Shown piece by piece: positions 12,662-58,322 of a DNA stretch of 64,000 nucleotides. A program made the position numbers and the translations under genes. The DNA lies in NCBI GenBank assembly GCA_964497975.1, contig CAZCFO010000003.1:6620-70619 (forward strand), in the 5' to 3' direction. Origin of the DNA: an uncultured Candidatus Peribacteria bacterium (GTDB lineage: Bacteria > Patescibacteriota > Gracilibacteria > Peribacterales > Peribacteraceae). Below the pieces are notes generated by a model. It was given only the letters and a program-made list of their open reading frames with translations. It did not search any database and was not told where the DNA came from. The stretch's first letter is position 1. Each line of letters starts with the position of its first letter.

Positions 12662-12866
12662 ATGGCGGGAGTATAGGAGGCGGGTGGGGGAAGGAATAGG
12701 GCAGATCGGCCAATGGCCCGCATGTGCACGCCGGGTCTTGCTTTTTAGACATTTGTTGTTTATGACATTACAGCTTTGTGCCGTCAAGGTACCAGGGAAA
12801 CACTGATGGTGCAGACGCACCGCTCCTTGGAACCGCAGATGGCACGACTCAAAGAAAAGGTGTCCC

Positions 12867-13724
12867 ATGAACCGTTTGATCGCAGCCTGGATTCTCGTCG
12901 CCGTGTTTTTCGGCGGCGCCCACATTATCAACACGGGCGCACAGGATGCGCCCAAGGAACTCGGCAAGAAGCCGATGGATCCGCCACCCAAGCAATTGAC
13001 GCTTACCGTCATGATCGAGAGCGCGTCCCATCTCACGCAGACCGTGTTGATGGGCCAATCGAGTGGCATGTACGGTGAAGTCGTCACTGCCAAGAAGGTG
13101 GGTGACAACGTCAAAAAGGGTGAGAAGCTCTTCCAGCTTCGTTTTTTGGAAGGGAAACACGCCGAGCTGAAGGCACATCTCCATGCCGCCAAGGACCTGG
13201 CGCACGCCGCTGAGGCGGCATTCGAATGGAACGAGCACCTCAATAAAACGGCTGCAGTGCTTGCAAACAAGGGCGCATCAGCCAAGGAGGAGGCGGAAAA
13301 GCGCAAGCTTGGCGCGCTCAAGGCCAAGTTCGAATGGGAAGCTGCGGAGCAGCATGTTATTGCCGCCAAAGAACGTTCGTCACCTCACAATCCCGTCGCC
13401 GAAATCGACGGCGAGGTCATCTCGATGGATCGTCGGTTGATCCGTGGTTTCCAGATCACGGACCTCCCCATCACTATTGAGTTGATGCGGATCGCGGATC
13501 TGAAGGAGCTGGAGGTCACCCTTCAGATTCCTTTTAAGGTCCGCCATCGTATCCAAGGATACGAGGTGACGCCGGTGCGCGACGGAAAGAAGCGCATCGG
13601 TCGTGAAGTGCGCGTCAACAAGCTCACGGATGAGCTCCTCGAAATTTCCGTCGTCTTCGGCAACGAAGACGGCACCCTGCGGCCATTCGAGGCCGCCGAC
13701 GTTGTTGTCCGTCTGCGAGACTGA
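12867..13724 (+). CDS. HlyD-type membrane fusion (periplasmic adaptor) family protein, orphan
   Basis: Signal anchor, lipoyl-like motif GMYGEVVTAKKVGDNVKKGEKLFQL, alpha-hairpin region, second half-lipoyl PVAEIDGEVISMD, beta-barrel-like tail. Confidence 0.75.
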   Translation: MNRLIAAWILVAVFFGGAHIINTGAQDAPKELGKKPMDPPPKQLTLTVMIESASHLTQTVLMGQSSGMYGEVVTAKKVGDNVKKGEKLFQLRFLEGKHAELKAHLHAAKDLAHAAEAAFEWNEHLNKTAAVLANKGASAKEEAEKRKLGALKAKFEWEAAEQHVIAAKERSSPHNPVAEIDGEVISMDRRLIRGFQITDLPITIELMRIADLKELEVTLQIPFKVRHRIQGYEVTPVRDGKKRIGREVRVNKLTDELLEISVVFGNEDGTLRPFEAADVVVRLRD

Positions 13725-15105: not shown

Positions 15106-17079
<1,974 letters not shown>

Positions 17080-23583: not shown

Positions 23584-23669
23584 TGGTGCCCAGGAGAGGA
23601 CTCGAACCTCCACGGCCTTGCGGCCACCAGCCCCTCAAGCTGGCGCGTCTGCCATTTCGCCACCTGGGC
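23584..23669 (-). tRNA. tRNA-Leu (anticodon GAG), CCA encoded
   Basis: Folded by hand. 7-bp acceptor stem GCCCAGG/CCTGGGC, 3-bp D stem with a GG loop, anticodon stem CCAGC/GCTGG with loop TTGAGGG, long variable arm GGCC-GCAA-GGCC, T-loop TTCGAGT, discriminator A plus CCA. Confidence 0.95.
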
Positions 23670-27476: not shown

Positions 27477-30190
<2,714 letters not shown>

Positions 30191-30194
<4 letters not shown>

Positions 30195-31135
30195 TGAAAA
30201 CACTGTTCCATGACCGGCGATTCTTCCCGCCCGCGCCCCGCGGCGCGACTCCCTGGCAGACCTTCGCGGGCGCATGGAATCACTTCTGGTTCCGGCAGGG
30301 TCCGCCGCATCTCCTTGCGGTCTTCCGCATCGTCTTCGGCGTGTGGCTCCTCTTCTATTTCGGCCTCCAGCTGCCGAGTATTGTCATGCTCTACTCGCGT
30401 GAGGGCATCCATCTCCCGCTCTTCACACCCTCCACCGCCCTCACGCTCGTCTTCACGCCTCCTCCCCCGTGGGTGGCGTGGACGATCTTCCTCACCTTCT
30501 ATGCCGCCATCGCGCTGTTCACCGTCGGGGCGCTCACGCGCGTGATGGGCTGGGTCGTCGTGATCCTCTACGCGTACTATTGGATCCTCTCACTCTGGCA
30601 GTTCGGCACCTCGTTCGACCGGCTCTTCCTCTTCATCATGCTCATTCTCGCGCCGAGCGGATGCAACAAGACGTTCTCGGTCGACATGCGCGTCAAACAC
30701 GGCTCGTGGCTCGCGTGGGAGCCCATCAGCATCGTGGCGCAGCGCATCCTCGCCGTGCAGGTGATGATGACGTATCTGGGGGTCGGTTGGCAGAAGCTGT
30801 ATCTGCCCGCGTGGCAGACGGGCAAAGTCCTCTCCGTCGGGTTTATGGGCCGGTGGGCGACGCCGCCGGCGTGGTGGATCGCGCGGCTCAATCTTCCTCT
30901 TCCGTTCTACGACGTGATGACGTGGGCGATCAAAGTGTTTGAGTGCACGATTCCGTTCGGGCTCTGGAGCAGGAAGTTCCGCTGGTGGTTCTTCGCCGGG
31001 GGAGCGGCGTTCCACATCGGGATCTCCATACTGCTGAATATTTGGTGGTTTCTCCCCTTAATTCCTGCGTACATCCTGTTTTTTGAGCCGGAGGAGGTGC
31101 AAATGGCGCTCAAGCGCTGGATGAAGTTCGCGTAA
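30191..31135 (+). CDS. HTTM (vitamin-K-dependent-carboxylase-like) domain membrane protein
   Basis: WNHFWFRQGPPHLLAVFRIVFGVWLLFYF is the characteristic HTTM N-terminal motif. Multi-TM. 314 aa. Confidence 0.75.
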
Positions 31136-31322: not shown

Positions 31323-33092
31323 ATGAATTCCATCCCCGCCGGAATCGAAACATCATTGCTTGCGGCTGGCTTCACTCCGACCGAAGTCCTGGTGGTGCGG
31401 AAGCTGATGGAAAGCGACGCGCTCACCCTGCGCGAGCTTGCCGCGCGTACGGGAAAGGGGATCGGCGTGCTCGATCAGGCGGTAAAGAAGCTTCTCCGCA
31501 AGAACATTCTTCGCCGGGACACCATTAATGATTCCGCAAAGTACACGCTCACTTCCCTCGATCAGGTTTTGCATTGGGTGGAAACCGACATGAACCAAAA
31601 ACGCGAAGTTCTCCAGCGCCAGCATCAGAACTTCGAACAATTCATCCGCACGTTCGAGCAGGATAAAAAGAGGCCCGATATCCAGTACTTTGACGGGCTT
31701 GATGGGCTTGCGACCGCCTATCGGAAACTTCTCGAGCGGGGAAAAGAGATGCTCGCGTACGTTCCGGTCTTTTGCAGCATCGAGGATCACCCGCTGCGCG
31801 ACTTCATGGTGGAATGGTTCCGCATCCGTCGGAATCATGGAGTGTTCTTGCGCGTCATCGCTCACGACACTCCTCTGGGACGCCGGTACGTTTCCCGCGA
31901 TCCGTTCGAATACCGTCAGACGGTTCTGGTGGATGAGAAGACCTACCCCTTTACCTTTGAAAAGATCATCTCGGGGGACACGGTCGCCTGTATTAATTAT
32001 GCCGAAAAACGGGCGTGCCTACTCCGGTATCCGGAGTTGTCCACCATGGAAAAGTCGCTCTTTGAAGGCATTTGGAAGCAGGAACAAAAAAAAGATGTAT
32101 CTATAAAATCCACTGAAGCCATTGTGACAGCAATTAAAGTACCAAATACTGCGACGATACGAGTTCGTGTTCTCTCTGCGCTGCGAGAATTTTTTCTTAG
32201 CAAGAAGAGTGCTGCCATTATTTTGGTAATTATGCTCTTGGCCATAGTTGTAGCATTTGCAGTCCAAGCCTTATCAGAGCCCCATTCTGCAAGTGAAGTT
32301 TCAACAAGGATTTTCAAGTTTATGCTTTCGTTTTCAGCTACTTTCTTATTGTTTATAACAGTTCGCCTAGCTGCTGCCAATAAGTCATTAATAAAGGAAC
32401 TATGGTCGGTATTTAAAATTAAAAAAATTCTGTTAATTGCGGCACTATGTCTTGAACTTTCTTTTGCAATAACATTTGCAATTTATAAATATTCATTAAA
32501 TCAAATAATTGATGAAATCGGAATGAAAACTATGGCAGCAATGGCTACTGCTTCGACGGAAATAAAAACAGAGGATCTAATAAAAATTCAGTCAGCTGAA
32601 GATATGAAAACAGATAGTTATCAAAGCTTATTCCAAAAACTGAATCTAATTCGCACTACAAATCCTCATATAAAATACGTATATATAATGCGGTATTTGC
32701 CTAAAGAAAATGTCTTTGAATTTGTAGTTGATGCTAATTCAAACTTCAATTTGCCTGCGATTGGCCCCGATCTTAATGGAGATGGAATAATCAATCAGGC
32801 AGACGAAAATGTTTTTCCTGGAGTAAAATATCCTGTTGAAGGGAAAATGTTACAAGCTTTGGAAACCCCTTTATATGAATCTGAATTTTTTGCAGATCAG
32901 TGGGGCACTTGGATATCGGCGTATGCCCCACTCAAAAACAATAAAGCGAAGTATGCACTCTTAGGGGCTGATGTTGATATTTCAGATGTTTATGCATCTC
33001 AAAATCGAAAATTTTCGCCATGGTTATGGTTTTCGGGAATCTTTGGCCTTTTGGCTTTATTGTCCATTTTAATCAAGAGTATAAAGCCCTAG
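31323..33092 (+). CDS. membrane-tethered TrmB-family HTH regulator with extracytoplasmic Cache/PDC-like sensor domain
   Basis: N-terminus LLAAGFTPTEVLVVRKLMESDALTLRELAARTGKGIGVLDQAVKKLLRKNIL (TrmB-type wHTH), followed by 3 TM helices. The sensor region YVYIMRYL...EFVVDANS...DLNGDGII...WGTWISAYAPLKN...ALLGADVDI is homologous to the HK sensor at 35408-36874. There is a final TM helix. Confidence 0.75.
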   Translation: MNSIPAGIETSLLAAGFTPTEVLVVRKLMESDALTLRELAARTGKGIGVLDQAVKKLLRKNILRRDTINDSAKYTLTSLDQVLHWVETDMNQKREVLQRQHQNFEQFIRTFEQDKKRPDIQYFDGLDGLATAYRKLLERGKEMLAYVPVFCSIEDHPLRDFMVEWFRIRRNHGVFLRVIAHDTPLGRRYVSRDPFEYRQTVLVDEKTYPFTFEKIISGDTVACINYAEKRACLLRYPELSTMEKSLFEGIWKQEQKKDVSIKSTEAIVTAIKVPNTATIRVRVLSALREFFLSKKSAAIILVIMLLAIVVAFAVQALSEPHSASEVSTRIFKFMLSFSATFLLFITVRLAAANKSLIKELWSVFKIKKILLIAALCLELSFAITFAIYKYSLNQIIDEIGMKTMAAMATASTEIKTEDLIKIQSAEDMKTDSYQSLFQKLNLIRTTNPHIKYVYIMRYLPKENVFEFVVDANSNFNLPAIGPDLNGDGIINQADENVFPGVKYPVEGKMLQALETPLYESEFFADQWGTWISAYAPLKNNKAKYALLGADVDISDVYASQNRKFSPWLWFSGIFGLLALLSILIKSIKP

Positions 33093-33140: not shown

Positions 33141-33491
33141 ATGAAAAATTTTGTATGGGCAATGGCCATTATGGGGGCTGTCGCAATCGCTGCCTTGGCA
33201 GATTCCGTTAGTACCCTTTGGGCAAACGGTAATAATAGATTTTCAATTTATTTATTGTTAATTTTTCTTTTAGGCCCTCTAGTCTTCATAAGCTTTGGTT
33301 TAGTAACGACAAAAGTAGGTTTGGCCATAACATCGGGGGTGGTGAATTCCTTATTGGTACTAACATCTATTTCTATCGGACTTTTTGTTTTTGGAGAGTG
33401 GAATAAAGTTTCCTTTCTTCAGTATGTCGGAATGGCTTTTGCAATTACGGGAATAATTTTTATGTTGTTTTTTCCGAAGGTAAATTCCTAG
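33141..33491 (+). CDS. SMR/DMT-superfamily 4-TM protein (EamA-half / ArnE-like)
   Basis: 116 aa with four hydrophobic helices. Low-GC codon usage. Confidence 0.7.
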   Translation: MKNFVWAMAIMGAVAIAALADSVSTLWANGNNRFSIYLLLIFLLGPLVFISFGLVTTKVGLAITSGVVNSLLVLTSISIGLFVFGEWNKVSFLQYVGMAFAITGIIFMLFFPKVNS

Positions 33492-33494
33492 GCT

Positions 33495-35360
33495 ATGCCT
33501 AAAGCTTTTGAAAAAAAACTTCTTCATGTATCAAATGTTTCGATTAAGAGGCAAGCTGCATCAGAAAAAGAGGGCAGCTATTTGGAAATATTAAGCTTTG
33601 AACGAATTAGCAAAAAAACAAATGCTTTTGCAGATCACATTCAAAAAAATCTTGAAAAAATCACAAATGTGCTTTTGGAATATGAAAGTTATGAAGTAGT
33701 AATGGACGAGATTTCACGTTCGCTAGATTTGTTACAAAATTTACAGGAAAACAGGACCTACTTCTCCTTAAGGATTGGGAATATTGTCGCCTTTTTACCT
33801 CGTAACCAGCCTCTTTATGCATTTACATGTTTTGTGATCGTCCCATCACTGATGGCAACAGAAGTACACTTTAGAATTCCTCACAGCATGAAAAAGTTTT
33901 TTCCTCAATTATTAGACATTCTTGAGGTAAGTGACTTTTTTCCAAATGTAAAAATTTCTAAAAAGGAACGAGTGGAATTTTTAAGTGAGCATTCCTCATT
34001 AAGATTTGATCCACTCACAAATCGGGCATTGCCTTTAACTGAGGCGGTAATATTTACTGGAGCCTCACATCATGCTGAAAAATTACGTTTAGTTTTTGAT
34101 AAGCGAACCCTGTTTATTACAAATGGAGCAGGCCACAACCCTTTAATTGTCAGTTGCGATGCAGATATGCAAGCGGCAGTTACAGCGGCAGTTAGTCTGC
34201 AATTTTATAATCAAGGCCAGGATTGCGCTGCTCCGAATGCAGTTTTAGTTCATTCTAAAATATTTAATAAATTTGCAAAATTGCTCAGGGAAAAAATTAG
34301 TCATCTTAAGGTTGGGCCATATAAAGATCGATCTTGTCGGATAGGACCCATCAGTGACTCTAGGGATTTGGTTAGAATACAAACCATATTAGTGGATAAT
34401 GAGAAATGGTTGGACCCAAATACTCCTGGCGTAATTTCAACAGCTCAATCCCTTGTAATGCCGACTATTATTAATAAGCCCCTACAGGAAGGAGGTAATT
34501 TTACAGAAGTATTTGCACCAATACTTTTTTTGCAAAAATATAACGACGACCCAAGTCTATCTTTGTATTTTGAGGATAAAAGCTATGCACGAAATGCAAT
34601 GTACGTAACGCTTTATGGTAGCAGTTCATATGTAGAATCCTTGGTGGGTAAAACAGTGCATGGAAAAATACTCCACGATACGGATTCCATATTAATTAAT
34701 AAGCATTTGCACGAAAAAGGTATTGAAAGAGGGACTAAGCCGTATGGTGGATATGGTATTGGCGCTTCAAGTCTTAGTATTAATTCGAAAACAATTTGCA
34801 TGCCGACCCTTCCTCAGCGCGATATCTATGAGCATCTTGCAAAACCGTTTTTAAATGAGAAAGAAAGGAGTATTCAGCAAGAAATGATCAGTCGTGCTTC
34901 CATCCTTCTCCCGAAAGACATAAAAAAATTCTTGGCATTTAGATCAATTGAGGACAAGGAAAAACAGCAAATATCCTTATTAGATTCTTACATTGACTTG
35001 CAGGGAATGAAAGTGGACGGAAAAAGATATGTAAAACTACAACCTGAAAATAGTTATACGCTTCTTGATAAGCCAAACATTCCATATGCAGCTCATTTGC
35101 ATCCAAAGGACCTACAAAATATTAGATTACTAAGAGAGTTTTTAAAAATTGATAAGAAAATTTCTCCCGAAGAGTTTTCAAGGTTTTTATACGATTTACC
35201 CAAGGGACGGGAGGAAGCTTCGGAAGCAAATCACACAGCACAAGCGAACTTCTTTACACACATCTATTATTTGGTATTTGGGAAATCAACAGGTCCTCGA
35301 CTTGCTAGATTTCTTTTGGAAGTTGATAAGCAAAAGATATGTGAACTGTTGGATGTATAA
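33495..35360 (+). CDS. aldehyde-dehydrogenase-superfamily domain fused to a class-I lysyl-tRNA-synthetase-like C-terminal domain
   Basis: ALDH core: FTGASHHAEKL, LFITNGAGHNPLIV (the ELGGK position lacks Glu), YNQGQDCAAPNAVLVH (catalytic Cys motif GQ.C.A), LKVGPY. Tail: SPEEFSRFLYDL...FFTHIYYLVFGKSTGPRLARFLLEVDKQKICELL resembles the LysRS-I C-terminus (..Y..L.GK.RGPRLASFL..), compared from memory. Confidence 0.7.
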   Translation: MPKAFEKKLLHVSNVSIKRQAASEKEGSYLEILSFERISKKTNAFADHIQKNLEKITNVLLEYESYEVVMDEISRSLDLLQNLQENRTYFSLRIGNIVAFLPRNQPLYAFTCFVIVPSLMATEVHFRIPHSMKKFFPQLLDILEVSDFFPNVKISKKERVEFLSEHSSLRFDPLTNRALPLTEAVIFTGASHHAEKLRLVFDKRTLFITNGAGHNPLIVSCDADMQAAVTAAVSLQFYNQGQDCAAPNAVLVHSKIFNKFAKLLREKISHLKVGPYKDRSCRIGPISDSRDLVRIQTILVDNEKWLDPNTPGVISTAQSLVMPTIINKPLQEGGNFTEVFAPILFLQKYNDDPSLSLYFEDKSYARNAMYVTLYGSSSYVESLVGKTVHGKILHDTDSILINKHLHEKGIERGTKPYGGYGIGASSLSINSKTICMPTLPQRDIYEHLAKPFLNEKERSIQQEMISRASILLPKDIKKFLAFRSIEDKEKQQISLLDSYIDLQGMKVDGKRYVKLQPENSYTLLDKPNIPYAAHLHPKDLQNIRLLREFLKIDKKISPEEFSRFLYDLPKGREEASEANHTAQANFFTHIYYLVFGKSTGPRLARFLLEVDKQKICELLDV

Positions 35361-35407: not shown

Positions 35408-36874
35408 ATGGATTCTCAGTCCAAGACAAAAAAGAAGTGGCAGTCAACATTAATACAAGGGTTCATTGTATTAGTAGCTATTCTAATAACAGCAGGGGTT
35501 TCTTGGTTTTTGTATGAGCATACCGTTAATCTTTTAACTGATAACTTGCGTCAGCGACTTCTTTCTATAGGAACCACTCAAGTAGCTAATATTGATCCGT
35601 CAGATGTAGAAAAATTGCAAAAAGAAGATGATTGGAAACGACCCGAGTGGGCCAGAGTTGTAGGGCAATTAAAGAGGGCAAAAAATAACAACTCAAATAT
35701 TGTTTTTATGTACATTTTTAGAAAGAAAGGAAATGATGCCACGCAAATGGAATTTGTAGCAGATGCAGAGTCAATTAATCCATATGCCAACATTGATACA
35801 GACTCTTCAAATGACGTTGATGCTAATGGAGATGGAAAAATTGAACCGGATGGAGCTGACCAATTACAATGGCCCGGGCAAGATTATCCAGAGCCACCGG
35901 ACGAAGCCTTTCTGGCATATGACGGACCTCTTACCAATAAGGATCTCTATGCTGATGCCTATGGGCAAGTACTCACAGGTTATGCACCCATAAAAAATGG
36001 TAGTGGGAAAGTAATCGCAATCCTAGGTACTGATATAAAAGCCAATGACTTCTTTACGGTTACACGACAAACACTTTATCCATTTTTAGCTTTCATTATT
36101 TTGCTTATAGGGATTTTGCTCATCCTTGCCAGTAGCCTTATTAAAATTTGGTCCAAGCAAGTGGATTTGATTGTTGAACTAGATCGTCAGAAAGACTCTG
36201 TTTTGCATATGGTTGCCCATCAATTTAAAGGGCCTGTTTCCACCATTAACTTCACTACGGAGCTGCTTCTCGATGGCACTTATGGGAAGCTTTCCCCTGA
36301 GCAGCAGGAGAACGTAAATGTTATTCGTACGGCTTCGCAAAAGATGGGATCGCAATCAGAAATGGTCTTGGATGCTGCAAAAATTACGCTCGGGAAGCTG
36401 CCGCTTGAACCCAAGCCCGTTGAGCTTGATCAGCTCTTCAAGGAAGTAGTGAAGGAGGCCGAGACTCACGCAAAGGAACGCAAAGTGAATTTGAAGGTTG
36501 TTCTTCCCAACGAACCGCTTCCCACAGCGACTCTCGATCGGAGATATACACAGCTGGCCTTCGATAACCTTCTCAGTAATGCCATTAAATACACCGCTCT
36601 GAAAGCGGAGGGCGGCAGTGCTGAATTCATCGTCCAAATGCAGGGTAAGACGTTACGTGCTTCCGTGAAGGACACCGGCATCGGTATCCCCAAGGCAGAA
36701 CAGGACAATATCTTCAAGGAACTCTATCGTGCCTCGAATGCTGGCAAGGATGGCAATGGGCTTGGTTTGCACGTCACCAAGGGCGCCATCGAAGCCCAGG
36801 GCGGCAAGCTGTGGTTTGAAAGCGAAGAAGGGAAGGGAACGACGTTCTTTGTGGAGCTTCCCTTGAATTCTTAA
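35408..36874 (+). CDS. sensor histidine kinase with Cache/PDC-like periplasmic domain
   Basis: TM1, sensor (IVFMYIFRKK...EFVADAES...DANGDGKI...YGQVLTGYAPIKN...AILGTDIKA), TM2, H-box HMVAHQFKGPV, N box LLSNAIKYT, G boxes DTGIGIP and GNGLGLHV. Confidence 0.88.
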   Translation: MDSQSKTKKKWQSTLIQGFIVLVAILITAGVSWFLYEHTVNLLTDNLRQRLLSIGTTQVANIDPSDVEKLQKEDDWKRPEWARVVGQLKRAKNNNSNIVFMYIFRKKGNDATQMEFVADAESINPYANIDTDSSNDVDANGDGKIEPDGADQLQWPGQDYPEPPDEAFLAYDGPLTNKDLYADAYGQVLTGYAPIKNGSGKVIAILGTDIKANDFFTVTRQTLYPFLAFIILLIGILLILASSLIKIWSKQVDLIVELDRQKDSVLHMVAHQFKGPVSTINFTTELLLDGTYGKLSPEQQENVNVIRTASQKMGSQSEMVLDAAKITLGKLPLEPKPVELDQLFKEVVKEAETHAKERKVNLKVVLPNEPLPTATLDRRYTQLAFDNLLSNAIKYTALKAEGGSAEFIVQMQGKTLRASVKDTGIGIPKAEQDNIFKELYRASNAGKDGNGLGLHVTKGAIEAQGGKLWFESEEGKGTTFFVELPLNS

Positions 36875-37308
36875 AAAGTCGCCTCCGCGTACCAGTGAGA
36901 GTTTTCTCGATTTTCAACTCCTAACATGTGAATTTTGTCCTTCAGGAAAAAATAAAGCATGGGAGTATCGTTATCAGGCGATGGCTCAGGCTCAAGATGC
37001 ACACTTGGGCTATTAGGGTCAGGATCGAGATTAAAAAGAAGATCGACCTGTCCATTTTGGTCAGCGGTGGCTGGTGTATTTAAAGCAGGAATGTCGCACC
37101 AAGTTGATGGAGCTGTATTTTCAATCGTTGCTTCATAATCTCCATCTCTTACAGTTTTGTCAGAGCAACTTAAGCCCGCTCTCTGGATCACTGCTCCAGT
37201 CATTTTCTGGCCCATAAAAACAGAAACGACAAGATTATGCTTAGGGGAGTAAGAAAAAATTTGGCAGCCTGCTAAGATAAAACATCCGATAAAGAAAATC
37301 TTTTTCAT
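36871..37308 (-). CDS. lipoprotein, hypothetical (candidate immunity protein)
   Basis: MKKIFFIGCFILAGC lipobox. 145 aa. ATGA overlap with the stop of the 1327-aa gene. Low GC. Confidence 0.7.
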   Translation of the reverse strand: MKKIFFIGCFILAGCQIFSYSPKHNLVVSVFMGQKMTGAVIQRAGLSCSDKTVRDGDYEATIENTAPSTWCDIPALNTPATADQNGQVDLLFNLDPDPNSPSVHLEPEPSPDNDTPMLYFFLKDKIHMLGVENRENSHWYAEATF

Positions 37309-40300
37309 GATTCTATACGGTAAATAGTGGTGTAAGTTGCCTTCAAATTCAACGAATTAAAGGACATGAAATGATATCGTGGGGTATTATCTGGCTGTTT
37401 CCACAGAGTGGGTTGAATGCCTGCATTTTTTTCCTCAGCGGTTAATTCTCTTGGGCTGTGAGTGAATTCATCAATAACACCACGTGTAATTTCTAAATGA
37501 GTATTTATATCTCCAGGAAAATCTTTAATTTCCATCCAATTTTCATTATTTCCGAAATTCGTATCAAGAACCCACAAACCATCGCTTTGAATTTTTGTAA
37601 TCAACATTGTGTGCGGAATGCTCCCATATCCCATTTGGACAACATCTCCGACTTTCACATCAGAGCTATTATTAATCATTTCCTCAAACGTTTTGTCGCC
37701 TCGAATAGATGCAACAACAGTTACGTTGGCAGTAGTACTCGAAAATGAATTCCATTCATACGAGCCTATCCCTTTAATGTCGCTGGTTTTATTTGTCGGC
37801 AGTTTATTAAGAGTAATTCCACTCGATTGTAGCCAGTTTTGAATCCAAGTTTTGCACTGCTCCAGTCCAGTTCCGTGAAGTTCTCCAATAAAGGGATATG
37901 TGCCATTATTTTGATATTTAAGGGTAGGAATAATGGAATTCATCACATACGTCAGGATTTTCTGATTTGTTTCCGGCAGTTCATTAAAGTTGTCGATGCT
38001 TAAAACCTCTTGGGCAATTTTCTTTTGTGCGTCAGTAAGATCATCCCAGTTGCGCGGAATGCCACTTGTGTTGGCAGCTCTCTCCACCACCTTCTGCACT
38101 CCTACCTGCAGAGCCGGCTTCAGAGAATTGAAAAACGAGGTGAATGAGGACGACACTCCCGTTACAAGCTGCTCCGTTCCTTGCATTTTGGCAGAAATCC
38201 ATTTGGATACTTCGGAAAGGTCTCTTGCGATGAGCGTAATGGGATTGAACGTCGAAGGAGGAATGCCCCCTGCCGTCGCAACGAGATAGGCCGATTGCCG
38301 CAGGGTGAATGTGCCGTCGGAATTGCGCTGCAGAATGAGTCCCTCACCCATGGAATTTCTATAGGCGATGGCGGTGCCCTCCTGAGTGACAAATTCCTTG
38401 GGAGGCTCCACTTTCGAAGCGGCCACAACGGCGCCGGAGAACTTCGTAAACTCGGCCACCGTCCACCCCGCCCGGTCCGGTGCGCCGGCGACGGCAACGA
38501 AGACTTTATCGAGTGCAAGCTGCTGTTCAGTCGTCCGTTGCGCAATGGGAATGTTCTGGACGTGCAGCAGCCCCGCTGCCGCCAAGGCATCGTGCAACGC
38601 CTGGTCCTGCTCCTGCGAGCGCACGCTCGCGGCATGCTCGGCGTTGAACACGGCGATGCTGTCGGCGCAGATGCGCTCGTACTCCTGTTCGTAAATCTCT
38701 TCGCACCTCGCCTTGCACATCCGGTAGATCTCGTCCCGCGACGGGAGATTGGGGATGGAGGCCTGCGCATTGTGTCCAGTGGGGTCCTTGATGGGGGAGG
38801 TGTTGCGCGGCAGCACCACGCCGTTCATTTCCATCAGCACCGTGTTCCAGGTGTCCTGCACCGCGACGAGATAGGCGTCCCACATGCGCCCTTTCGCGAC
38901 TTCAATGGCATTGCGCAGGTCTGACTGGCCCTGGGGGCTCAGCTGGTCATAAGCGGCGCTGCCCATCTGCCACCGCGCGATATCGGTACTGGACGAATTG
39001 ATCGTGACGACCCCCGGCCCGCGGTCAAAGAGGTTCAATTTCTCGATGATGCCCGTTGCGAGGAGGTTCTGCAGCGCGGGGTTCACGTTGCCCATGCCGT
39101 ATTCGCCCTGCCGCGGAACGCTCGTGGGGACGAAAGCCGCTTTCAGATCGACCTGGATGGAATCGCACAGATCGTCCGCGCCGCTCGTGATGGTCAGGAC
39201 GATACTGTCGCCGGCTGCAAGTCCGAAGAGGCGCTGGTCGAGGGGGAGGTTGTCGAAATTGGAAAGAGCCCCGCCGTTGGCGATGGCCTTCCTCCACTGC
39301 TCGCGCATCGTGCCATCCGCCGAGCGGATACTCAGCGCCACCGTTACGCCGTCCCCCACGCGTGCGTCCAGATCGGTGATCGATCCGCGCAGCATCGCGG
39401 TGCCCGAACCGTTGGGGGTGAACAACACCCGGACGTCTTTGTCTGTCGTCGGGTGGACAAGAAGGGTCTGGCCGGCGAGAGGAGCGGCATTGCCGGTTCC
39501 TTCCAGGGCGGCCGGTGCATCGCTGCGGTTGACCGCCACGCTCAGCGGAAGGTCGCGCGTGCCCGCCGGCGGCGCGTAGGCGATCTGCGAGAGATTGAAG
39601 GCGCTCGGCTGGCCGGTGTAGGTATCACCCATTACGTACGCTCCGGCCTTGGTGCGGATATTCCAGTCCCGGGCATCGAGCGGAATCTCCATGACCGATG
39701 TGCCCGCGGCGATATCCAGCGTCACGGGATTTTTCCACGGCCGGATGTATTCGAGCACGTACCCCTCCGCGAAATTCCGCAGGGTGAACCGCTGCTTCTG
39801 CGTGTCGCCATCGGGGTAGATCTCCACGCGCGGCGTGATCCTGGGGATCTCTTTCCCCTGCGTTCCGTCCGGCGACACGCCGCTGAGCGTCCCGATGGGG
39901 GCTAGCTGGGAGAAGGAAAGGGGAGTCGCATTGCCTCCGGTCGTCACCACTTCCGCGCTCCAGGTTCCGATGACGGAATGGGAAAACAGATCACCGGTGG
40001 CGGTCATTGCGGCGGGCATATCCCAGCTTTGCATCTGCCTGTTCACGATCGTCTGGATTGCCGGAAGATCGCCCCGGATGGTTTCGGGAACAACCCATCG
40101 CGGCACCTTGATCACGCGGTCGCCGGCTTCGGGCGTGATCGTCGCGCTTCCAAGAGTGAATGACGCCGTTCCGCTGAAGTACTTCGTCCGCAGGTACAGC
40201 CAGTCCATGTCGCCGGTGATCTCCACGCCCATGGACATCCGCACAAAGGATTCCTTCACCGTCGCCTGAGGGACGAGCGGCGCTTGGGGAGAGAGCAGCT

Positions 40301-41288
40301 CCTGTTGTTTTGCGAGGAACATCTCCACCAGTCCCTCCACTTCCGCATCCAGCGCATCCACGAGCAGCGTTTCGTTCTGCAGCGTCTGCCAGACCGTCCC
40401 CAGTTCTTCCTGCCGTTCCTCGAGAAGGTTTTCCGTTTCCGAGAACGCGGCGAAGACCGCGTCATATGCCGCGCGTGAGGCCTTCACTTCCCCCCGCAGT
40501 CGCTCCACGGCCGCATCCAGGGACGACAGCGCTCTCTCGGCGTCCTGGCGGCGGGTCTGGGCCCCGGCAATGTCGGCCGGCAATACGTTCAGCCGGTCCT
40601 GCAGGCGGGCGAGCTCCGCTTCGTCCGCCGCTTTCGCCGCGTTGACCGCGGTGATCTGCGCAGATACGACCGTGCGCTGCGCCTGCACGCCGTCGATCTG
40701 GGGCTGCAGAATTTTGATCGAGGATTCCAGCGAGGATTTCTTGCTGAGCAATTTCTTGTCTCTGGGACGCTTGGTCAGTTCCTGCGTGACGATTACAAGG
40801 TCTTTCTGCAGCGTCTCCATTTTGGTGAGCATCGGGGCAAGCGTCGTCTGCAATTGCTCGCTTTGCGCGCCAAATGAGGTGAGCTGCGACTGAAATGCGG
40901 TGATTTCCCCCTGCAACGCGGAGACTCTCTGCAGCGCGGAGCCCTGCTCCGCACGCAGGGACGTTTCCTGTCCCTGAAAGGTCTGAACGTTCTGGGTCAA
41001 GGGGGGCCGCTGGTCGAGGGCTCCCTGCAGCTGACTGTTCACGACGTCCCACGCCGAGCGCGCCGCTTCCGTCCCCGCTTGTCTGGCGCCCAAATCCTGC
41101 GTGAGCAGGGAGACGTCGTTTTGCAGGAGGCCCGCGCGGGATGTGACGGTATCCAGGACGGCGTGCTCCTGCTGCCACGCCACTATCTGCGGGTCGGCGA
41201 CCAGGGCGGGAGGAACGCTCACTAGCGCGGGCGTGTCCCGGGTTTCGAGTTGTTCAACGTTCAAGGCTGTGTCGCGGCGGTTGTCCAT
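37305..41288 (-). CDS. 1327-aa protein: N-terminal coiled coil, large central region, C-terminal CHAP/NlpC-P60-like cysteine peptidase domain
   Basis: About 330 aa of Q/L/A/E-rich heptad-like sequence. The C-terminus has GLEQCKTWIQNW (Cys), GSIPHTMLITKI (His) and LWVLDTNF (polar third residue), arranged as in CHAP domains. No classical signal peptide. Confidence 0.85.
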   Translation of the reverse strand: MDNRRDTALNVEQLETRDTPALVSVPPALVADPQIVAWQQEHAVLDTVTSRAGLLQNDVSLLTQDLGARQAGTEAARSAWDVVNSQLQGALDQRPPLTQNVQTFQGQETSLRAEQGSALQRVSALQGEITAFQSQLTSFGAQSEQLQTTLAPMLTKMETLQKDLVIVTQELTKRPRDKKLLSKKSSLESSIKILQPQIDGVQAQRTVVSAQITAVNAAKAADEAELARLQDRLNVLPADIAGAQTRRQDAERALSSLDAAVERLRGEVKASRAAYDAVFAAFSETENLLEERQEELGTVWQTLQNETLLVDALDAEVEGLVEMFLAKQQELLSPQAPLVPQATVKESFVRMSMGVEITGDMDWLYLRTKYFSGTASFTLGSATITPEAGDRVIKVPRWVVPETIRGDLPAIQTIVNRQMQSWDMPAAMTATGDLFSHSVIGTWSAEVVTTGGNATPLSFSQLAPIGTLSGVSPDGTQGKEIPRITPRVEIYPDGDTQKQRFTLRNFAEGYVLEYIRPWKNPVTLDIAAGTSVMEIPLDARDWNIRTKAGAYVMGDTYTGQPSAFNLSQIAYAPPAGTRDLPLSVAVNRSDAPAALEGTGNAAPLAGQTLLVHPTTDKDVRVLFTPNGSGTAMLRGSITDLDARVGDGVTVALSIRSADGTMREQWRKAIANGGALSNFDNLPLDQRLFGLAAGDSIVLTITSGADDLCDSIQVDLKAAFVPTSVPRQGEYGMGNVNPALQNLLATGIIEKLNLFDRGPGVVTINSSSTDIARWQMGSAAYDQLSPQGQSDLRNAIEVAKGRMWDAYLVAVQDTWNTVLMEMNGVVLPRNTSPIKDPTGHNAQASIPNLPSRDEIYRMCKARCEEIYEQEYERICADSIAVFNAEHAASVRSQEQDQALHDALAAAGLLHVQNIPIAQRTTEQQLALDKVFVAVAGAPDRAGWTVAEFTKFSGAVVAASKVEPPKEFVTQEGTAIAYRNSMGEGLILQRNSDGTFTLRQSAYLVATAGGIPPSTFNPITLIARDLSEVSKWISAKMQGTEQLVTGVSSSFTSFFNSLKPALQVGVQKVVERAANTSGIPRNWDDLTDAQKKIAQEVLSIDNFNELPETNQKILTYVMNSIIPTLKYQNNGTYPFIGELHGTGLEQCKTWIQNWLQSSGITLNKLPTNKTSDIKGIGSYEWNSFSSTTANVTVVASIRGDKTFEEMINNSSDVKVGDVVQMGYGSIPHTMLITKIQSDGLWVLDTNFGNNENWMEIKDFPGDINTHLEITRGVIDEFTHSPRELTAEEKNAGIQPTLWKQPDNTPRYHFMSFNSLNLKATYTTIYRIES

Positions 41289-54368: not shown

Positions 54369-54710
54369 ATCGCATACAAAAGAGCTGTGATTGCACGTGA
54401 AGTAGGATTTGCACAGAATCCCGTTCTTTCGCATAACGAAAAAAATCCTGCAGATCTCATCACTCTGTCGGACCAATCTTTCAATTTTCAGCCTTTCAGA
54501 GCTCTCTTTGGCGTATGTTGCCTCATCGATATCTGCGGCTGGAGTGGATTCCTGCTTTCGCTCTTGCCTATGACATCCGGCTTTGAATGTGTGGGCAACA
54601 ATGGTCCAGATCGCGGTAGAGATTCTCGCTTTTGATCTATTATATGGCTCCGGAAGCCTTGACTTGCTAAATGCCATCAATATGATTTGGATGATTTCCC
54701 CCTCCTCTTT

Positions 54711-57700
54711 ATGTCGAGTTCCTTCTCGCGCGTGCGGTCCGCATTGAGTACGTTTAGTACGACCGCGCTTGTTTTGAATATTGCTGTTGGTTCGCTCGTC
54801 GCGGCGCTGCCGGTGTTCTCACCGATCGCTGCAGCGGCGACTTTTGGTCCGAGTAATGCCGGCGCAGGCGCGAATGTGACGGGTGTCGGATCGGTAAACT
54901 GGTCGAACGCCGGATTCATCATCGCCGATGATACGAATTACGCCACGGCTACTCTCGGAGCATCAGCAACGTCTCGTTATCTGCAGGGCACCAATTACGG
55001 CTTCGCTATTCCCACTGGTGCGACGATTAACGGAATTCAGGTATCCATCATGCGTGAAACTTCTGACGTGACTCTGGGTGCCAGTATCGATGACAATATC
55101 GTCCGCCTGGTAAAGGCAGGGACTATTGTTGGTGATAACAAAGCAACATCCGCTGATTGGCCTACCTCTATGACTGCAGCCAGCTATGGCGGGCCGTCCG
55201 ATTTATGGGGCACAACCTGGACTGCAGCAGAAATCAATGCGAGCAATTTCGGTGTCGTCCTTTCAATTTTGAATGAAGGAATTGTGACTTCAAGAACGGG
55301 GAGAGTTGATTACATGCAGATTACCGTCACGTATACCCTTTCCACGGGAACTATTCACGTGACCAAGACTGCGGTGGGCGGCGACGGGACATTCAATTTT
55401 ACGAATGCGGCCAGCTTTGCGATTACCACCACCGGCGGTACGGGAACGCACGATATCACCGACTTGTCACCGGCGTCGTATTCGGTGGATGAGACGGCGC
55501 CCACGGGCTGGACGGTCACGAGCAACGGTTGCCAGAACGTGTCGGTGACCGCAGGCAATACCACAAACTGCACGATCACGAACACCAAGCTCGGTACGGT
55601 GACGGTTATCAAAAATTCCCTTCCGGTCAGTGCGCAGTCCTTCCCGTTCACCACCACGATCGGAGGTGGCGAGGGGGGATTCAGTCTCAGCGATGATGGC
55701 GAAGGCTCGGAGGACACGGTTGAATTTACGAGCGTCGCTCTCGGCAGCCACACGATTACCGAAGGATCGGTCGCGGGCTGGAGCCTCACGGGTCTCGTGT
55801 GTACCGGCGGCGATGCCGACGGATCCACCGATCTCGTGACCCGTACCGCCACGATCGACGTGGACGCGGGCGAACACATCACCTGCACGTTTACCAACAG
55901 TCAGTACGGAACGCTGCACATCACCAAGAACGCGTACGGTGGCGATGACGAATTCGACTTCACGATCGATGGCGAGGGCAGCGACGTCCTTGAGTCCGCT
56001 TCCATCACCACGACCGCCGGCACGGGCACCGCCGATGTGTCTCTCCCCGTGGGCGATTACAATGTGTCCGAAACTCTTCCCGAAAGCGGCGCATGGCAGC
56101 AGGTGAGCAACGGCTGTTCCTTTGCCGTCATCCAGCCCGGTCTGACCACGAATTGCACCGTCGAGAACGTTAAGCGCACCCGCATCTCGGTGGGCAAGGA
56201 GACGACCAACGGCGGCGAGGCGAACTTCACCTTCACCCGGAAATTCGGCAGCAGCAGTAGCAGCAGCTTCTCGCGTGGCGTCACGGAACCAGGCGTTCCT
56301 GTGGGCCTCGATTCGTTCTTCGAAATCTTTGCGTCGGTCAGCTCCAGCAGCGCGGCTGCGATCCCCGTCGAAATCGTCGAATTGAATCTTCTGAACTGGA
56401 ACTTCAACCAGGTGCAGTGCACCCTCAACGAGAGCCCGATGAGCGTCACGCCCCAGTTGGGAGAAGACGGCGTTCTGATCGGTTTCAACGCCCAGGCAGG
56501 CGATCAGATCCAGTGCCTCTTTAACAACAGAATGTCCGTGTGTGGCAACAGCGTTGTCCAGAGCGGCGAGCAGTGCGACGACGGCAATGCGACGGTCGGC
56601 GACGGATGCTCCGACACCTGCCAGTACGAACTTGGCTGGTCGTGTAATCACAACGAGCCGAGCGTTTGCACCACGAGCTGCGGCGACAATATCGTCGCCG
56701 GAGTGGAGGAGTGCGACAATGACCTCACCAATACCAGCGGCGACGGATGCGACGCCTTCTGCCACATCGAAGTCTGTGGCGATGGCGTTATCAACAATAC
56801 GCATGTCGAGGGTGAAACGACCGTTACCGAACAGTGCGACGACGGCGATGACGATGCGGGCGACGGATGCTCCGATACCTGCCAGATCGAAATCGGCTAC
56901 GCGTGTCCCACGGTCAACGAGTCGTGCGTCGCAATCTGCGGCGACGGCCTGGTCCTCGGCGGCGAGCAGTGCGACGATGGCGAGAGCAGTTGCGGCGACG
57001 GCTGTTCGTCCTCGTGCGAAGTCGAAACCGGTTACCAGTGCATCAACAGCACCGAAACCGATCCCAACAGCACCTGCGAGCTACATCTGGATTTCGGCGA
57101 CGCGCCGGATGGCGAGGGTGAAGACGCCGGATATCCGACTCTGCTGGAAGACAACGGCGCCCGTCACGTTATCGTCGAGGAGTACATGCTCGGTGCGACG
57201 ATCGACGGCGAGCCCAATGGCCAGCCGGATTTTGCGGCCGCTGGCGACGGTTCGGATGAAGACGGCGTTTCGTTCACGACGTCACTCACCCAGGGTGCCA
57301 CCGCAGGTGTGACGGTAGTCACCTCTCTGCCGGACGGCGAAGGCGAGGATGACGGTTATCTGGAGGCCTGGGTTGACTTCAACCAGGACGGCGACTGGGA
57401 CGATGAGGGCGAACACGTCATCGACAATCTCTCTCTTACGAGCGGCACGCATGCTCTGACGTTCTCCGTTCCCGCAGGCGCGGTTCTGGGCGAGACCTAC
57501 GCCCGGTTCCGCTGGAGCAGCATCGGCGGCATCGAGGAAAGCGGTCTTGATGTTACGGGGTACGCGCCGAATGGCGAAGTAGAGGACTATCTGGTCACGA
57601 TCACGGCTCCCGTTACCGAGACTACCTCCGACGACGAAGACGAGGGTCCGGTTTCGGATGACGGCGGCAACGGGGGTTCCCGCGGCAGCCAGACGAACCG

Positions 57701-58322
57701 TATTGGAGCGGCTATCAACAGGTTGATCTCCAACTTTATCGGCGACACCCCTCCTCCCGCGTTCGGAGGCACCGATGACGCTCCGTTCTCCGACGAGCAG
57801 AACGATCTGCTGCGGAGAATCAATCTGATGATCGGCTGCAACGCGTCGAATTCCGTCTTCCATGCTGCTGCTCAGATTATCGCCAAGAAGTTCAGCGGCA
57901 ACACGGCCGCCATCGAGGCTCAGATGCAGCTCATCTGCACGCAGCTTGCGGAGCGGTCGGGCATGAACAAGCCCGTGGTCCAGATCAAGCCCCGCCAGAT
58001 TGTGCTGGCCGAGGACGGTTACCCCGTTTCGAGCGACGATCTCTGGAACCTCTGCGTTCGTGGCAAGGCGACGCTTGCGGATTTCCGCAGCCACCCCATG
58101 GTGATCGACCGCGACACCGGCAAAACTGCGTCGAAAACATGCGGACTGTATCGCATATCCGGCACTCAGATCTGGAAGTTCCCGGATGATCTGTTCCTCA
58201 CGGGGCTCATCATCAATCCGTCAAAGTCCGGCAAGCCCGTCGTCAGCGTGTTCCAGAAGGGCTACGCGGTGCTGCCGTCCGCTCAGCGGACCGCCGAGGC
58301 CAGTTCGGCTGCGGCTCAGTAA
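54711..58322 (+). CDS. giant surface protein: N-terminal domain, prealbumin-like (SpaA/Cna-B-like) repeats, DUF4215 Cys-rich repeats, GEVED domain, C-terminal domain
   Basis: Repeats GT(I/L)H(V/I)TK.A.GGD..F.F. CG(N/D)..V...E.CDDGN...GDGCS..C (Myxococcus-type Cys-rich repeat). FGDAPD...NGEVEDY (GEVED). Start at ATG 54711, downstream of TTGACT-N16-TATGAT (54659-54686). Confidence 0.88.
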   Translation: MSSSFSRVRSALSTFSTTALVLNIAVGSLVAALPVFSPIAAAATFGPSNAGAGANVTGVGSVNWSNAGFIIADDTNYATATLGASATSRYLQGTNYGFAIPTGATINGIQVSIMRETSDVTLGASIDDNIVRLVKAGTIVGDNKATSADWPTSMTAASYGGPSDLWGTTWTAAEINASNFGVVLSILNEGIVTSRTGRVDYMQITVTYTLSTGTIHVTKTAVGGDGTFNFTNAASFAITTTGGTGTHDITDLSPASYSVDETAPTGWTVTSNGCQNVSVTAGNTTNCTITNTKLGTVTVIKNSLPVSAQSFPFTTTIGGGEGGFSLSDDGEGSEDTVEFTSVALGSHTITEGSVAGWSLTGLVCTGGDADGSTDLVTRTATIDVDAGEHITCTFTNSQYGTLHITKNAYGGDDEFDFTIDGEGSDVLESASITTTAGTGTADVSLPVGDYNVSETLPESGAWQQVSNGCSFAVIQPGLTTNCTVENVKRTRISVGKETTNGGEANFTFTRKFGSSSSSSFSRGVTEPGVPVGLDSFFEIFASVSSSSAAAIPVEIVELNLLNWNFNQVQCTLNESPMSVTPQLGEDGVLIGFNAQAGDQIQCLFNNRMSVCGNSVVQSGEQCDDGNATVGDGCSDTCQYELGWSCNHNEPSVCTTSCGDNIVAGVEECDNDLTNTSGDGCDAFCHIEVCGDGVINNTHVEGETTVTEQCDDGDDDAGDGCSDTCQIEIGYACPTVNESCVAICGDGLVLGGEQCDDGESSCGDGCSSSCEVETGYQCINSTETDPNSTCELHLDFGDAPDGEGEDAGYPTLLEDNGARHVIVEEYMLGATIDGEPNGQPDFAAAGDGSDEDGVSFTTSLTQGATAGVTVVTSLPDGEGEDDGYLEAWVDFNQDGDWDDEGEHVIDNLSLTSGTHALTFSVPAGAVLGETYARFRWSSIGGIEESGLDVTGYAPNGEVEDYLVTITAPVTETTSDDEDEGPVSDDGGNGGSRGSQTNRIGAAINRLISNFIGDTPPPAFGGTDDAPFSDEQNDLLRRINLMIGCNASNSVFHAAAQIIAKKFSGNTAAIEAQMQLICTQLAERSGMNKPVVQIKPRQIVLAEDGYPVSSDDLWNLCVRGKATLADFRSHPMVIDRDTGKTASKTCGLYRISGTQIWKFPDDLFLTGLIINPSKSGKPVVSVFQKGYAVLPSAQRTAEASSAAAQ

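Follow-up and report, generated by a model that had tools for sequence, protein, structure and literature searches.

An uncharacterised aldehyde dehydrogenase-like clade apparently tied to lysyl-tRNA synthesis, with a possible lysyl-tRNA reductase in a Candidatus Peribacteria genome

What might an enzyme do that joins an aldehyde dehydrogenase (ALDH) fold to the anticodon-binding end of a lysyl-tRNA synthetase (LysRS)? The question is raised by a 621-amino-acid protein encoded at positions 33495-35360 of a 64,000-nt stretch of DNA from an uncultured Candidatus Peribacteria bacterium, a member of the Candidate Phyla Radiation (CPR). This stretch is referred to below as the window, residue numbers are those of the 621-aa protein unless stated otherwise, and features lie on the plus strand unless the minus strand is given. 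From the open reading frame (ORF), its homologues and an AlphaFold model, the gene encodes an ALDH-like thioester enzyme, a linker and a class-I LysRS anticodon-binding cage.

The best explanation of the sequence comparisons is that the protein belongs to an uncharacterised clade of the ALDH superfamily that is functionally tied to lysyl-tRNA synthesis. We tentatively propose, at somewhat less than even confidence, that it is a Lys-tRNA(Lys)-dependent thioester reductase making L-lysinal, which would then be exported. This is proposed because the thioacyl- and NAD(P)-binding residues are invariant while the hydrolytic base is missing, because the enzyme is coupled to the activation of the lysine carboxyl group, and because a transporter gene is adjacent; from these we infer the substrate, the redox direction, the product and its export alike.

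The aldehyde dehydrogenase module and its active site

Pfam Aldedh (PF00171) matched the 621-aa protein with an E-value of 4.8e-23 and 81.9 bits against a cut-off of 23, and searches of NCBIfam and of PDB sequences with the ALDH part returned ALDHs only, at modest scores. The AlphaFold model, made with 62 homologues (pLDDT 89.2, pTM 0.86), was aligned by Foldseek to many solved ALDHs over ~450 columns, with TM-scores of 0.60-0.70 when normalised to the target. Since these alignments run over ~450 columns, residues ~30-452 (33582-34850) form a complete ALDH fold, extending beyond the 182-365 segment recognised by Pfam; the isolated N-terminal 182 residues gave nothing significant in Pfam.

The residues needed to form a thioester on this fold are present. 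In HMMER and MAFFT alignments Asn104 (codon 33804-33806) falls on the oxyanion-hole Asn of the PWNFP motif, Cys244 (codon 34224-34226) on the catalytic Cys, and Glu338 on the Glu of EEIFGP; the HMMER pairing sets FLPRNQP on FTPWNFP, NQGQDC on NAGQxC and TEVFAPI on EEtFGP. The motif PRNQP is thereby the equivalent of PWNFP in Escherichia coli GabD and of ftPwNfPv in the ALDH structure 9zh8, and the Cys of YNQGQDC aligns with the nucleophile of GabD (3jz4). The NAD(P) site, assigned from sequence, is conserved at FTG187-189 in the Rossmann turn, at Glu338 and at Phe340. The ALDH2 counterparts are C302 for the catalytic Cys, N169 for the oxyanion Asn, E268 for the general base and E399/F401 for the NAD site. 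A sequence-only reading of the window had noticed ALDH landmarks in this part of the protein, including NQGQDCAAPN (residues 239-248, nt 34209-34238), and the Pfam score, the Foldseek matches and the alignment of Cys244 bear this out.

The same reading had reported the general-base Glu to be absent at TNGAGHNP (residues 209-216), which also proved correct. Three independent alignments put Asn210 (codon 34122-34124), not Glu, at the position of the Glu in the ELGG motif, the site reading I-T-N-G-A-G-H-N-P as against L-E-L-G-G-N-A-P in GabD and M-E-L-G-G-H-A-P in 9zh8. With the water-activating Glu replaced, the usual hydrolysis of a thioacyl-enzyme would not take place. Asn210 is invariant in 18 aligned representatives of all architectures, with Ser in its place in one distant fusion to a class-II LysRS, and none of the members examined has Glu there. 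Asn104, Cys244 and Glu338 are invariant across the architectures in the same alignment of 18 representatives, and 57 positions of the ALDH module are invariant in all architectures. The motifs LPxNQP, FTG, LFIxNGxGHNP, YNxGQDC, E..F/xAP, YGG and TLPxR are invariant throughout the clade, and N-Q-G-Q-D-C is found in all aligned representatives except that of locus L042.

Active sites of this kind are known from acylating or reducing members of the ALDH superfamily. The N-terminal domain of AdhE, EutE/PduP and ProA share with the window protein the fold, the Cys thioester and the lack of a general-base Glu. The E. coli sequences read IGVGAGNTP in AdhE, IAAGAGNPP in EutE and ITGGIGVCH in ProA, compared with SLELGGNAP in GabD and IxNGAGHNP in the present family; NGAGHNP here thus parallels GVGAGNTP of AdhE and AAGAGNPP of EutE as a GxGxxP-type site. 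Unlike these enzymes, the clade has its own signature (LPxNQP, YNQGQDC, TLPQRD) and low overall similarity to them, and its partner is an aminoacyl-tRNA synthetase rather than coenzyme A (CoA) or an acyl-phosphate kinase. The family hidden Markov model (HMM) scored GabD at 64.4 bits, AdhE at 29.2, EutE at 20.4 and ProA at 5.6, so that the core is nearest to a hydrolytic ALDH, a point to be weighed below. Because the hydrolytic GabD scores highest, the clade appears to have lost the hydrolytic base independently. The earlier assignment to reductase-type ALDHs therefore holds for the active site, with its missing Glu and its likeness to AdhE and EutE, and not for the overall sequence, which the family HMM places nearer to the hydrolytic enzymes. 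LuxC gave no match at E<0.1 for the window protein in Pfam; a Photorhabdus relative has a weak match to it (E 5e-6).

The C-terminal domain and its links to lysyl-tRNA synthetases

The last ~190 residues had been read as resembling the C-terminal domain of class-I LysRS, and a significant match to that enzyme was the decisive point. As a single sequence the tail matched the NCBIfam class-I LysRS models weakly (E 1.6e-4 for lysS_arch and 1.4e-3 for another), and Pfam found nothing significant in the isolated tail. A profile of 36 homologous tails searched against the whole PDB hit one structure family only, the class-I LysRS of Pyrococcus horikoshii (1irx, E 1.5e-9), with profile positions 102-183 paired with residues 443-517 of the 523 in 1irx. 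A model of the tail alone (pLDDT 84) likewise had 1irx as its best Foldseek match (probability 1.00, 104 columns, rmsd 3.0 Å), followed in the list by a series of bacterial glutamyl-tRNA synthetase (GluRS) structures. The homology of the tail to class-I LysRS is far beyond chance. It covers the α-helical domain of residues 507-621 (~115 aa, 35013-35357), whereas residues 453-506 (34851-35012) are a linker, predicted to consist of two helices and a low-confidence loop (pLDDT <50 at 484-494), for which Pfam, the tail profile against PDB and Foldseek gave no family or structure match. The earlier description was thus right for the final ~115 residues and too generous in including the linker.

In bacterial GluRS the α-helical subdomains make up the anticodon-binding domain, with domain V forming a conserved α-helical cage, and class-I LysRS has evolutionarily related counterparts of these subdomains (PMC12088422). 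The last ~115 residues of the window protein are homologous, in sequence and in structure, to this end of class-I LysRS (1irx; PF01921, TIGR00467) and to GluRS domain V. The likeness ends there: the catalytic domain PF01921 found no match in the window protein, HIGH and KMSKS are absent, and the TIGR00467 equivalog score is 20.3 bits, below the cut-off of 147.55. Having no Rossmann catalytic domain, HIGH or KMSKS, the window protein cannot itself be a synthetase.

The tail is well kept. Across CPR classes its mean column identity is 49%, with Q583, F587, Y591, G600 and P601 invariant and seven invariant positions within the final 40 residues; the segment FFTHIYYLVFGKSTGPRLARFLLEVDKQKICELL occupies residues 586-619. 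Compared with the C-terminal ~110 residues of CPR class-I LysRS proteins and of ALDH-LysRS-I fusions, it showed 32-40% identity (E 1e-11 to 1e-19). In the alignment the linker of residues 453-506 stands where the LysRS-I catalytic core sits in the long CPR forms. Since the tail pairs with the C-terminal ~110 residues of the LysRS-I of these long forms, the short form looks like a long form from which the synthetase core has been deleted.

More than 120 full-length homologues of ~600-625 aa share 50-55% identity with the window protein; those with names come from Patescibacteria/CPR, among them Parcubacteria, Peregrinibacteria, Uhrbacteria and Paceibacteria. Databases call them "aldehyde dehydrogenase family protein", "lysyl-tRNA synthetase class 1", "lysine--tRNA ligase" or "hypothetical protein". 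A scan with one genome per species traced the ALDH module by itself, at ~40% identity over query residues ~30-450, to Pseudomonas, Photorhabdus, Xenorhabdus, Brenneria, Saccharothrix, Streptosporangium, Crossiella, Kibdelosporangium and Actinosynnema. When 1.84 billion cluster representatives were searched exhaustively, 216 clusters (50% identity) of many lengths matched at E<=1e-30.

Some relatives carry a whole synthetase. A 962-aa protein of Photorhabdus and a 965-aa protein of Pseudomonas have a complete class-I LysRS at the N-terminus, with Pfam tRNA-synt_1f matches of E 5e-71 and 1e-82, and the ALDH module at the C-terminus. Actinomycetes have the LysRS-I gene directly upstream of the ALDH gene, or fused to it. 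Some CPR have the reverse order, ALDH-LysRS-I (L042, 1117 aa; L043, 988; L045, 1102; L054, 977), and the CPR locus L049 encodes the two as a split pair of adjacent genes. Most of the fused synthetases keep intact motifs of the HIGH type (HFGN or HIGT) and of the KMSKS type (KMSGSKG or KISKSKG). One ALDH-LysRS-I fusion from a Peribacterales metagenome-assembled genome (L043:1310-4276) has lost KMSKS and has an altered HIGH region, with the ALDH signature and the C-terminal cage kept; judged by its motifs, it is a plausible intermediate between the long and short forms. Gamma-proteobacteria translate with class-II LysRS, so that their LysRS-I-ALDH gene is an accessory gene.

In more distant members, from metagenomes, the module is joined to the other LysRS class. 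In P0232 (892 aa) it is followed by a class-II lysine--tRNA ligase (NF001756, E 2.9e-61) with both the oligonucleotide-binding (OB) anticodon domain and tRNA-synt_2, and in P0224 and P0262 by a LysRS-II-type OB anticodon-binding domain, the sole synthetase part recognised there. The two LysRS classes are structurally unrelated and catalyse the same reaction. The fusion to both therefore indicates that the ALDH module needs a product or ligand of LysRS, namely lysyl-adenylate (Lys-AMP), Lys-tRNA(Lys) or tRNA(Lys), rather than one particular fold. The distribution of the fusion, which the sequence-only reading had proposed to determine, thus takes in CPR, Pseudomonas, Photorhabdus and actinomycetes and extends to class-II LysRS. 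That reading knew of no such fusion in print, and none came to light: in full-text literature searches neither a LysRS-ALDH fusion nor any lysyl- or other aminoacyl-tRNA reductase apart from glutamyl-tRNA reductase (GluTR) turned up, a survey of aminoacyl-tRNA synthetase paralogues does not mention the fusion, and databases offer generic names only.

Not every partner is a synthetase. P0275 joins a pyridoxal phosphate (PLP) aminotransferase, an enzyme type that acts on aldehydes, to the ALDH module and to a C-terminal region that looks nucleotidyltransferase-like on inspection of the sequence, and Pfam recognised a Pol-beta-type nucleotidyltransferase fused to the module in P0222, P0216, P0239 and P0249. 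An NTP_transf_2 gene (L042:9017-9874, by Pfam) abuts the long form of L042, and nucleotidyltransferase-like ORFs at L049:4197-5780, L053:4923-5171 and L047:8621-10210 were noted by inspection only. The nucleotidyltransferase is thus a second recurrent partner of the module besides LysRS.

These findings bear on two other explanations. The protein might be an ordinary aldehyde dehydrogenase using an alternative base, with the tail a functionless leftover of an ancestral fusion and the neighbourhood coincidental, as its database name and its best sequence and structure matches, all hydrolytic ALDHs, would have it. We consider this very unlikely, as the general base is missing in every member examined and the tail, with its invariant residues, is conserved across CPR classes; moreover, that the module became linked to LysRS several times independently, to two unrelated folds and in three gene orders, is hard to understand without a functional connection.

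Alternatively, the enzyme could reduce Lys-AMP, a mixed anhydride comparable to the gamma-glutamyl phosphate used by ProA, in place of Lys-tRNA, and the cage of the short form would then not bind tRNA but survive as a structural remnant, or else provide a surface on which the cell's own LysRS-I docks. The module is indeed fused to adenylate-forming enzymes of two classes, ProA is an ALDH-type reductase acting on an acyl-phosphate, and in L030 and L048 the short form has a standalone LysRS-I gene less than 3 kb away. However, the parts that survive where the synthetase is lost or has diverged are those that bind the anticodon (the class-I cage here, the class-II OB fold in P0224 and P0262), class-I LysRS needs tRNA for lysine activation and makes no Lys-AMP without it, and the invariant positions at the end of the tail exceed what a passive remnant would need. 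Reduction of Lys-AMP is accordingly rated as rather unlikely. That an anticodon-binding part is retained in both classes speaks for tRNA(Lys) being the handle, and hence for Lys-tRNA(Lys) being what the reductase acts on.

Neighbouring genes and genomic setting

The gene is the third of four closely spaced plus-strand ORFs, separated by 48, 3 and 47 nt in the ORF list of the window. It is preceded by genes for a 589-aa membrane protein (31323-33092) and for a 116-aa protein with four transmembrane (TM) segments (33141-33491, 3 nt upstream), and is followed after 47 nt by one for a 488-aa membrane sensor histidine kinase (35408-36874). We compared this arrangement in 41 non-redundant CPR loci with the full short form, of which 39 could be evaluated downstream. 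A homologue of the 116-aa protein is encoded directly upstream of the ALDH gene in 25 of the 41, and an orthologue of the kinase directly downstream in 30 of the 39, with short or overlapping junctions.

Outside CPR the LysRS-I/ALDH loci have no kinase. Clustering of the neighbours there was polluted by spurious overlapping ORFs in high-GC DNA, and only the linkage to a major facilitator superfamily (MFS) gene held up when checked directly by BLAST. In all seven Pseudomonas, all eight actinomycete and four enterobacterial loci the LysRS-I/ALDH gene is immediately followed by an MFS gene, and these MFS proteins share 35-46% identity across phyla. The MFS gene is present in Photorhabdus asymbiotica, Xenorhabdus and Brenneria and missing in most Photorhabdus species (L070-L078 versus L079-L082); in L073 rdgC (by Pfam) directly follows the LysRS-I/ALDH gene, and L067 has a 48-aa MFS remnant. 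A transporter gene thus stands next to the ALDH module nearly always, of the MFS type outside CPR and in the window of a four-TM type resembling the drug/metabolite transporter (DMT) clan. Together with the fusions to full LysRS of both classes, this near-constant transporter suggests that a substrate consisting of activated lysine or Lys-tRNA, and export of the product, are much more plausible than they would otherwise be.

The neighbour had been described as similar to small multidrug resistance (SMR) proteins, which fits its size of ~110 aa and its four hydrophobic stretches. The comparisons did not establish the SMR assignment itself. The 116-aa protein had no Pfam match, and among 22 members of its family EamA matched 11 (best E 0.0024), TMEM234 nine (best E 1e-4) and the SMR profile Multi_Drug_Res six (best E 0.23). 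The family profile matched no solved structure in PDB. The TM1 Glu typical of SMR proteins (E14 of EmrE) is not conserved in the family, whose TM1 consensus is A..ANS.SA.WA; the window protein has Asp21 at a non-conserved position, and the nearly invariant acid is E86, before TM4. The match to the DMT clan (EamA/SMR-like) is weak, so that "DMT-like half-transporter" is a fair if weakly supported description of a probable transporter subunit.

Lack of the hydrolytic base would also suit a reaction in the opposite direction, in which an aldehyde and NAD(P)+ give a long-lived thioacyl-enzyme that is resolved by the amine of lysine or Lys-tRNA, yielding an N-acyl-lysine, or by another acceptor; in a redox-independent variant Cys244 would act as a lysyl-transferase. 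Loss of the base favours capture of the thioester by nucleophiles other than water, and the engineered amide-forming ALDHs 9jem and 9jvl are among the structural matches from Foldseek. A precedent for lysyl transfer is mycobacterial LysX, in which class-II LysRS is fused to MprF; like LysX, the long relatives appear to be fusions of LysRS to an enzyme using Lys-tRNA(Lys) outside translation. The partner in LysX, however, is a membrane lysyl-transferase (lysyl-phosphatidylglycerol synthase) rather than an ALDH-type redox enzyme, and the window protein lacks the synthetase core. The oxidative direction leaves unexplained why the carboxyl group should be activated by a synthetase, no aldehyde-generating partner is conserved, and the simplest reading of the two-gene operon of fusion and MFS is activation followed by reduction and export. 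Redox-independent transfer is at odds with the invariance of the NAD-site residues. Both forms of this explanation are unlikely.

The kinase carries HisKA and HATPase_c and no other domain found by Pfam. Its N-terminal part is related to the membrane protein encoded upstream: residues 353-570 of the 589-aa protein and residues 3-229 of the kinase are 26% identical (E 7e-22), and the shared extracellular domain has a DxNGDG Ca-binding-like loop in both. The 589-aa protein has an N-terminal MarR/TrmB-like winged helix, supported by weak winged helix-turn-helix matches in Pfam, followed by TM segments and the extracellular domain, and its homologues adjoin the cassette in L004, L005, L024, L031, L041 and L044. 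By its domains it may be a one-component membrane regulator responding to the same ligand as the kinase.

The position of the kinase directly downstream in most CPR loci, and its lack of further domains, could mean that the 621-aa protein is mainly regulatory, sensing charged or uncharged tRNA(Lys) or lysine status and signalling to the co-transcribed kinase. All catalytic and cofactor residues are invariant, though, the relatives outside CPR have the transporter without the kinase, and neither the ORF list nor Pfam shows a response regulator in the cassette, which makes such a role highly improbable. Rfam scans of the window found no T-box, lysine riboswitch or other RNA family, and no dedicated tRNA gene near the cassette; the only RNA gene is a tRNA-Leu(GAG) 10 kb away (23584-23669, minus strand).

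The cassette lies in a compositional mosaic. The window has ~62% GC overall and ~36% GC between 32.1 and 38.1 kb. GC at third codon positions (GC3) falls from 0.70 to 0.30 near codon 240 of the 589-aa gene, rises from 0.30 to 0.55-0.68 near codon 260 of the kinase gene, and falls from 0.8 to 0.35 near codon 1090 of a 1327-aa gene on the minus strand (37305-41288), which puts the tract junctions near 32040, 36190 and 38020, inside intact ORFs. Because several of the junctions are in frame, recombination with a low-GC relative is suggested rather than a simple assembly chimera. Among the low-GC parts are the genes for the ALDH and the small TM protein, the regions encoding the presumed extracellular, TM-flanked domain in both the 589-aa protein and the kinase, and the region for the putative amidase-like C-terminus of the 1327-aa protein. 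The 1327-aa protein has a long coiled-coil N-terminal region and a weak C-terminal match of the Amidase_6/NlpC-P60 type; it is followed by a gene for a 145-aa putative lipoprotein (36871-37308, minus strand), the end of which overlaps the kinase stop codon. Neither protein has a homologue in the 82 related loci (L001-L082).

The surroundings are those of a high-GC, Peregrinibacteria-like CPR genome. FtsH (15106-17079) shares 75% identity with its counterpart in Candidatus Peregrinibacteria Gr01-1014_25 (L016), and the homologues of two genes at 29286-31135 lie just upstream of the same cassette in that organism. With Peregrinibacteria-like flanks and upstream genes syntenic with L016, the cassette is, on these sequence comparisons, at its native position. 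A 142-kb contig binned as Planctomycetota (JAXMAQ010000010.1, L046) has the same cassette of small TM protein, ALDH-cage protein and kinase, its ALDH ORF appearing interrupted and matching only residues 92-544. Horizontal transfer from CPR to a Planctomycete was considered and rejected, as the GC content of L046 is uniform at 56-62%, its nucleotide sequence shows no similarity to that of the window, and the flanks of the window are Peregrinibacteria-like. The contig may belong to CPR and have been binned wrongly, or its cassette may be a transferred copy in decay. Other genes of the window encode a predicted surface protein of 1211 aa (54687-58322), which combines SpaA-like prealbumin folds with DUF4215 and a GEVED domain, and a PMT-family glycosyltransferase (11135-13369, minus strand).

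A candidate lysyl-tRNA reductase

In the proposed reaction the helical cage would grip the anticodon of tRNA(Lys), which for the short form would have been charged with lysine by the cell's own LysRS. Cys244 would attack the lysyl ester of this Lys-tRNA(Lys) to give a lysyl-thioester, the tRNA serving as a swinging carrier, and NAD(P)H would reduce the thioester to L-lysinal (2,6-diaminohexanal). Lysinal, or a cyclic imine or pyrazine formed from it spontaneously by cyclisation or dimerisation, would leave through the adjacent DMT-like four-TM protein. The co-transcribed sensor kinase and the membrane winged-helix protein would probably regulate the system or respond to it, and this is the least certain link.

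To our knowledge, the only well-known reason to couple an enzyme that forms an adenylate or ester with an NAD(P)H-dependent Cys enzyme is the reduction of an activated carboxyl group to an aldehyde. Such couples are GluRS/GluTR, ProB/ProA, Ask/Asd, the carboxylic acid reductases and Lys2. The closest in chemistry is GluTR (HemA, of the C5 haem pathway), in which an aminoacyl-tRNA ester is attacked by Cys and the thioester reduced by NADPH to an α-amino aldehyde, the same course as is suggested by analogy here; it also acts after a class-I synthetase, and the present cage is a homologue of the anticodon-binding domain of that synthetase. GluTR differs in its unrelated fold, in its amino acid and in lacking a tRNA-binding domain derived from a synthetase, and Pfam, NCBIfam, PDB and Foldseek searches of the 621-aa protein gave no match to the GluTR family or structure. 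Carboxylic acid reductases, Lys2 (alpha-aminoadipate reductase) and the terminal reductase domains of nonribosomal peptide synthetases likewise combine ATP-dependent carboxyl activation with a step in which NAD(P)H reduces a thioester to the aldehyde, and their products are often exported or cyclise spontaneously. These three use adenylation domains of the ANL superfamily (acyl-CoA synthetases, nonribosomal peptide synthetase adenylation domains and luciferases), a phosphopantetheine carrier and reductases of the short-chain dehydrogenase/reductase type, whereas here the activator is an aminoacyl-tRNA synthetase, the would-be carrier is tRNA and the reductase has the ALDH fold.

Several observations count against a lysyl-tRNA reductase. 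Taken as a whole, the module resembles hydrolytic ALDHs most in sequence and structure, and not known reductases, and the invariant His214 or Asp243 could serve as an alternative base that restores hydrolysis. No conserved enzyme that would process lysinal is encoded nearby. The members fused to a Pol-beta-type nucleotidyltransferase have no aminoacyl-tRNA synthetase domain recognisable by Pfam, so that tRNA(Lys) is not the only possible partner. In some CPR lineages, moreover, the fused LysRS-I passes the TIGR00467 cut-off (290 bits) and its gene sits among housekeeping genes, with TyrRS, RuvC, YebC and a penicillin-binding protein as neighbours; for this reason the module may serve translation rather than metabolite synthesis in those lineages, where an unregulated reductase would drain Lys-tRNA.

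A broader picture can be drawn, in which the cassette is a tRNA-dependent small-molecule signalling circuit of CPR bacteria: the product derived from lysinal would be exported by the four-TM protein and sensed outside by the kinase and the winged-helix regulator, and this metabolite, or one akin to it, would also be the product of the two-gene LysRS-ALDH and MFS operons in Pseudomonas, Photorhabdus/Xenorhabdus and actinomycetes. As a whole this picture is speculative and distinctly unlikely to hold in every part.

There is a realistic chance that the clade has a new enzyme activity, which would be known in kind, either as the reduction of an activated carboxyl group or as a tRNA-dependent enzyme fused to its own synthetase. 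The fusion of one module to both unrelated LysRS classes is a clean case of domain fusions indicating function rather than fold. The hypothesis is directly testable, as Pseudomonas cichorii, Photorhabdus, Xenorhabdus and Saccharothrix are culturable, genetically tractable carriers. If it is true, the protein would join GluTR as only the second known aminoacyl-tRNA reductase, with a different scaffold and convergent with it, and if Lys-tRNA(Lys) is what is reduced, this would be a new route by which an amino acid is taken from translation into small-molecule chemistry. Nor is the family marginal, given its 216 clusters and the ~50% identity of full-length homologues across CPR/Patescibacteria lineages, bacteria that have a minimal metabolism and very few conserved enzymes without an assigned role. 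The tight linkage to a kinase and a transporter points to a possible, hitherto unrecognised signalling or defence metabolite in these bacteria.

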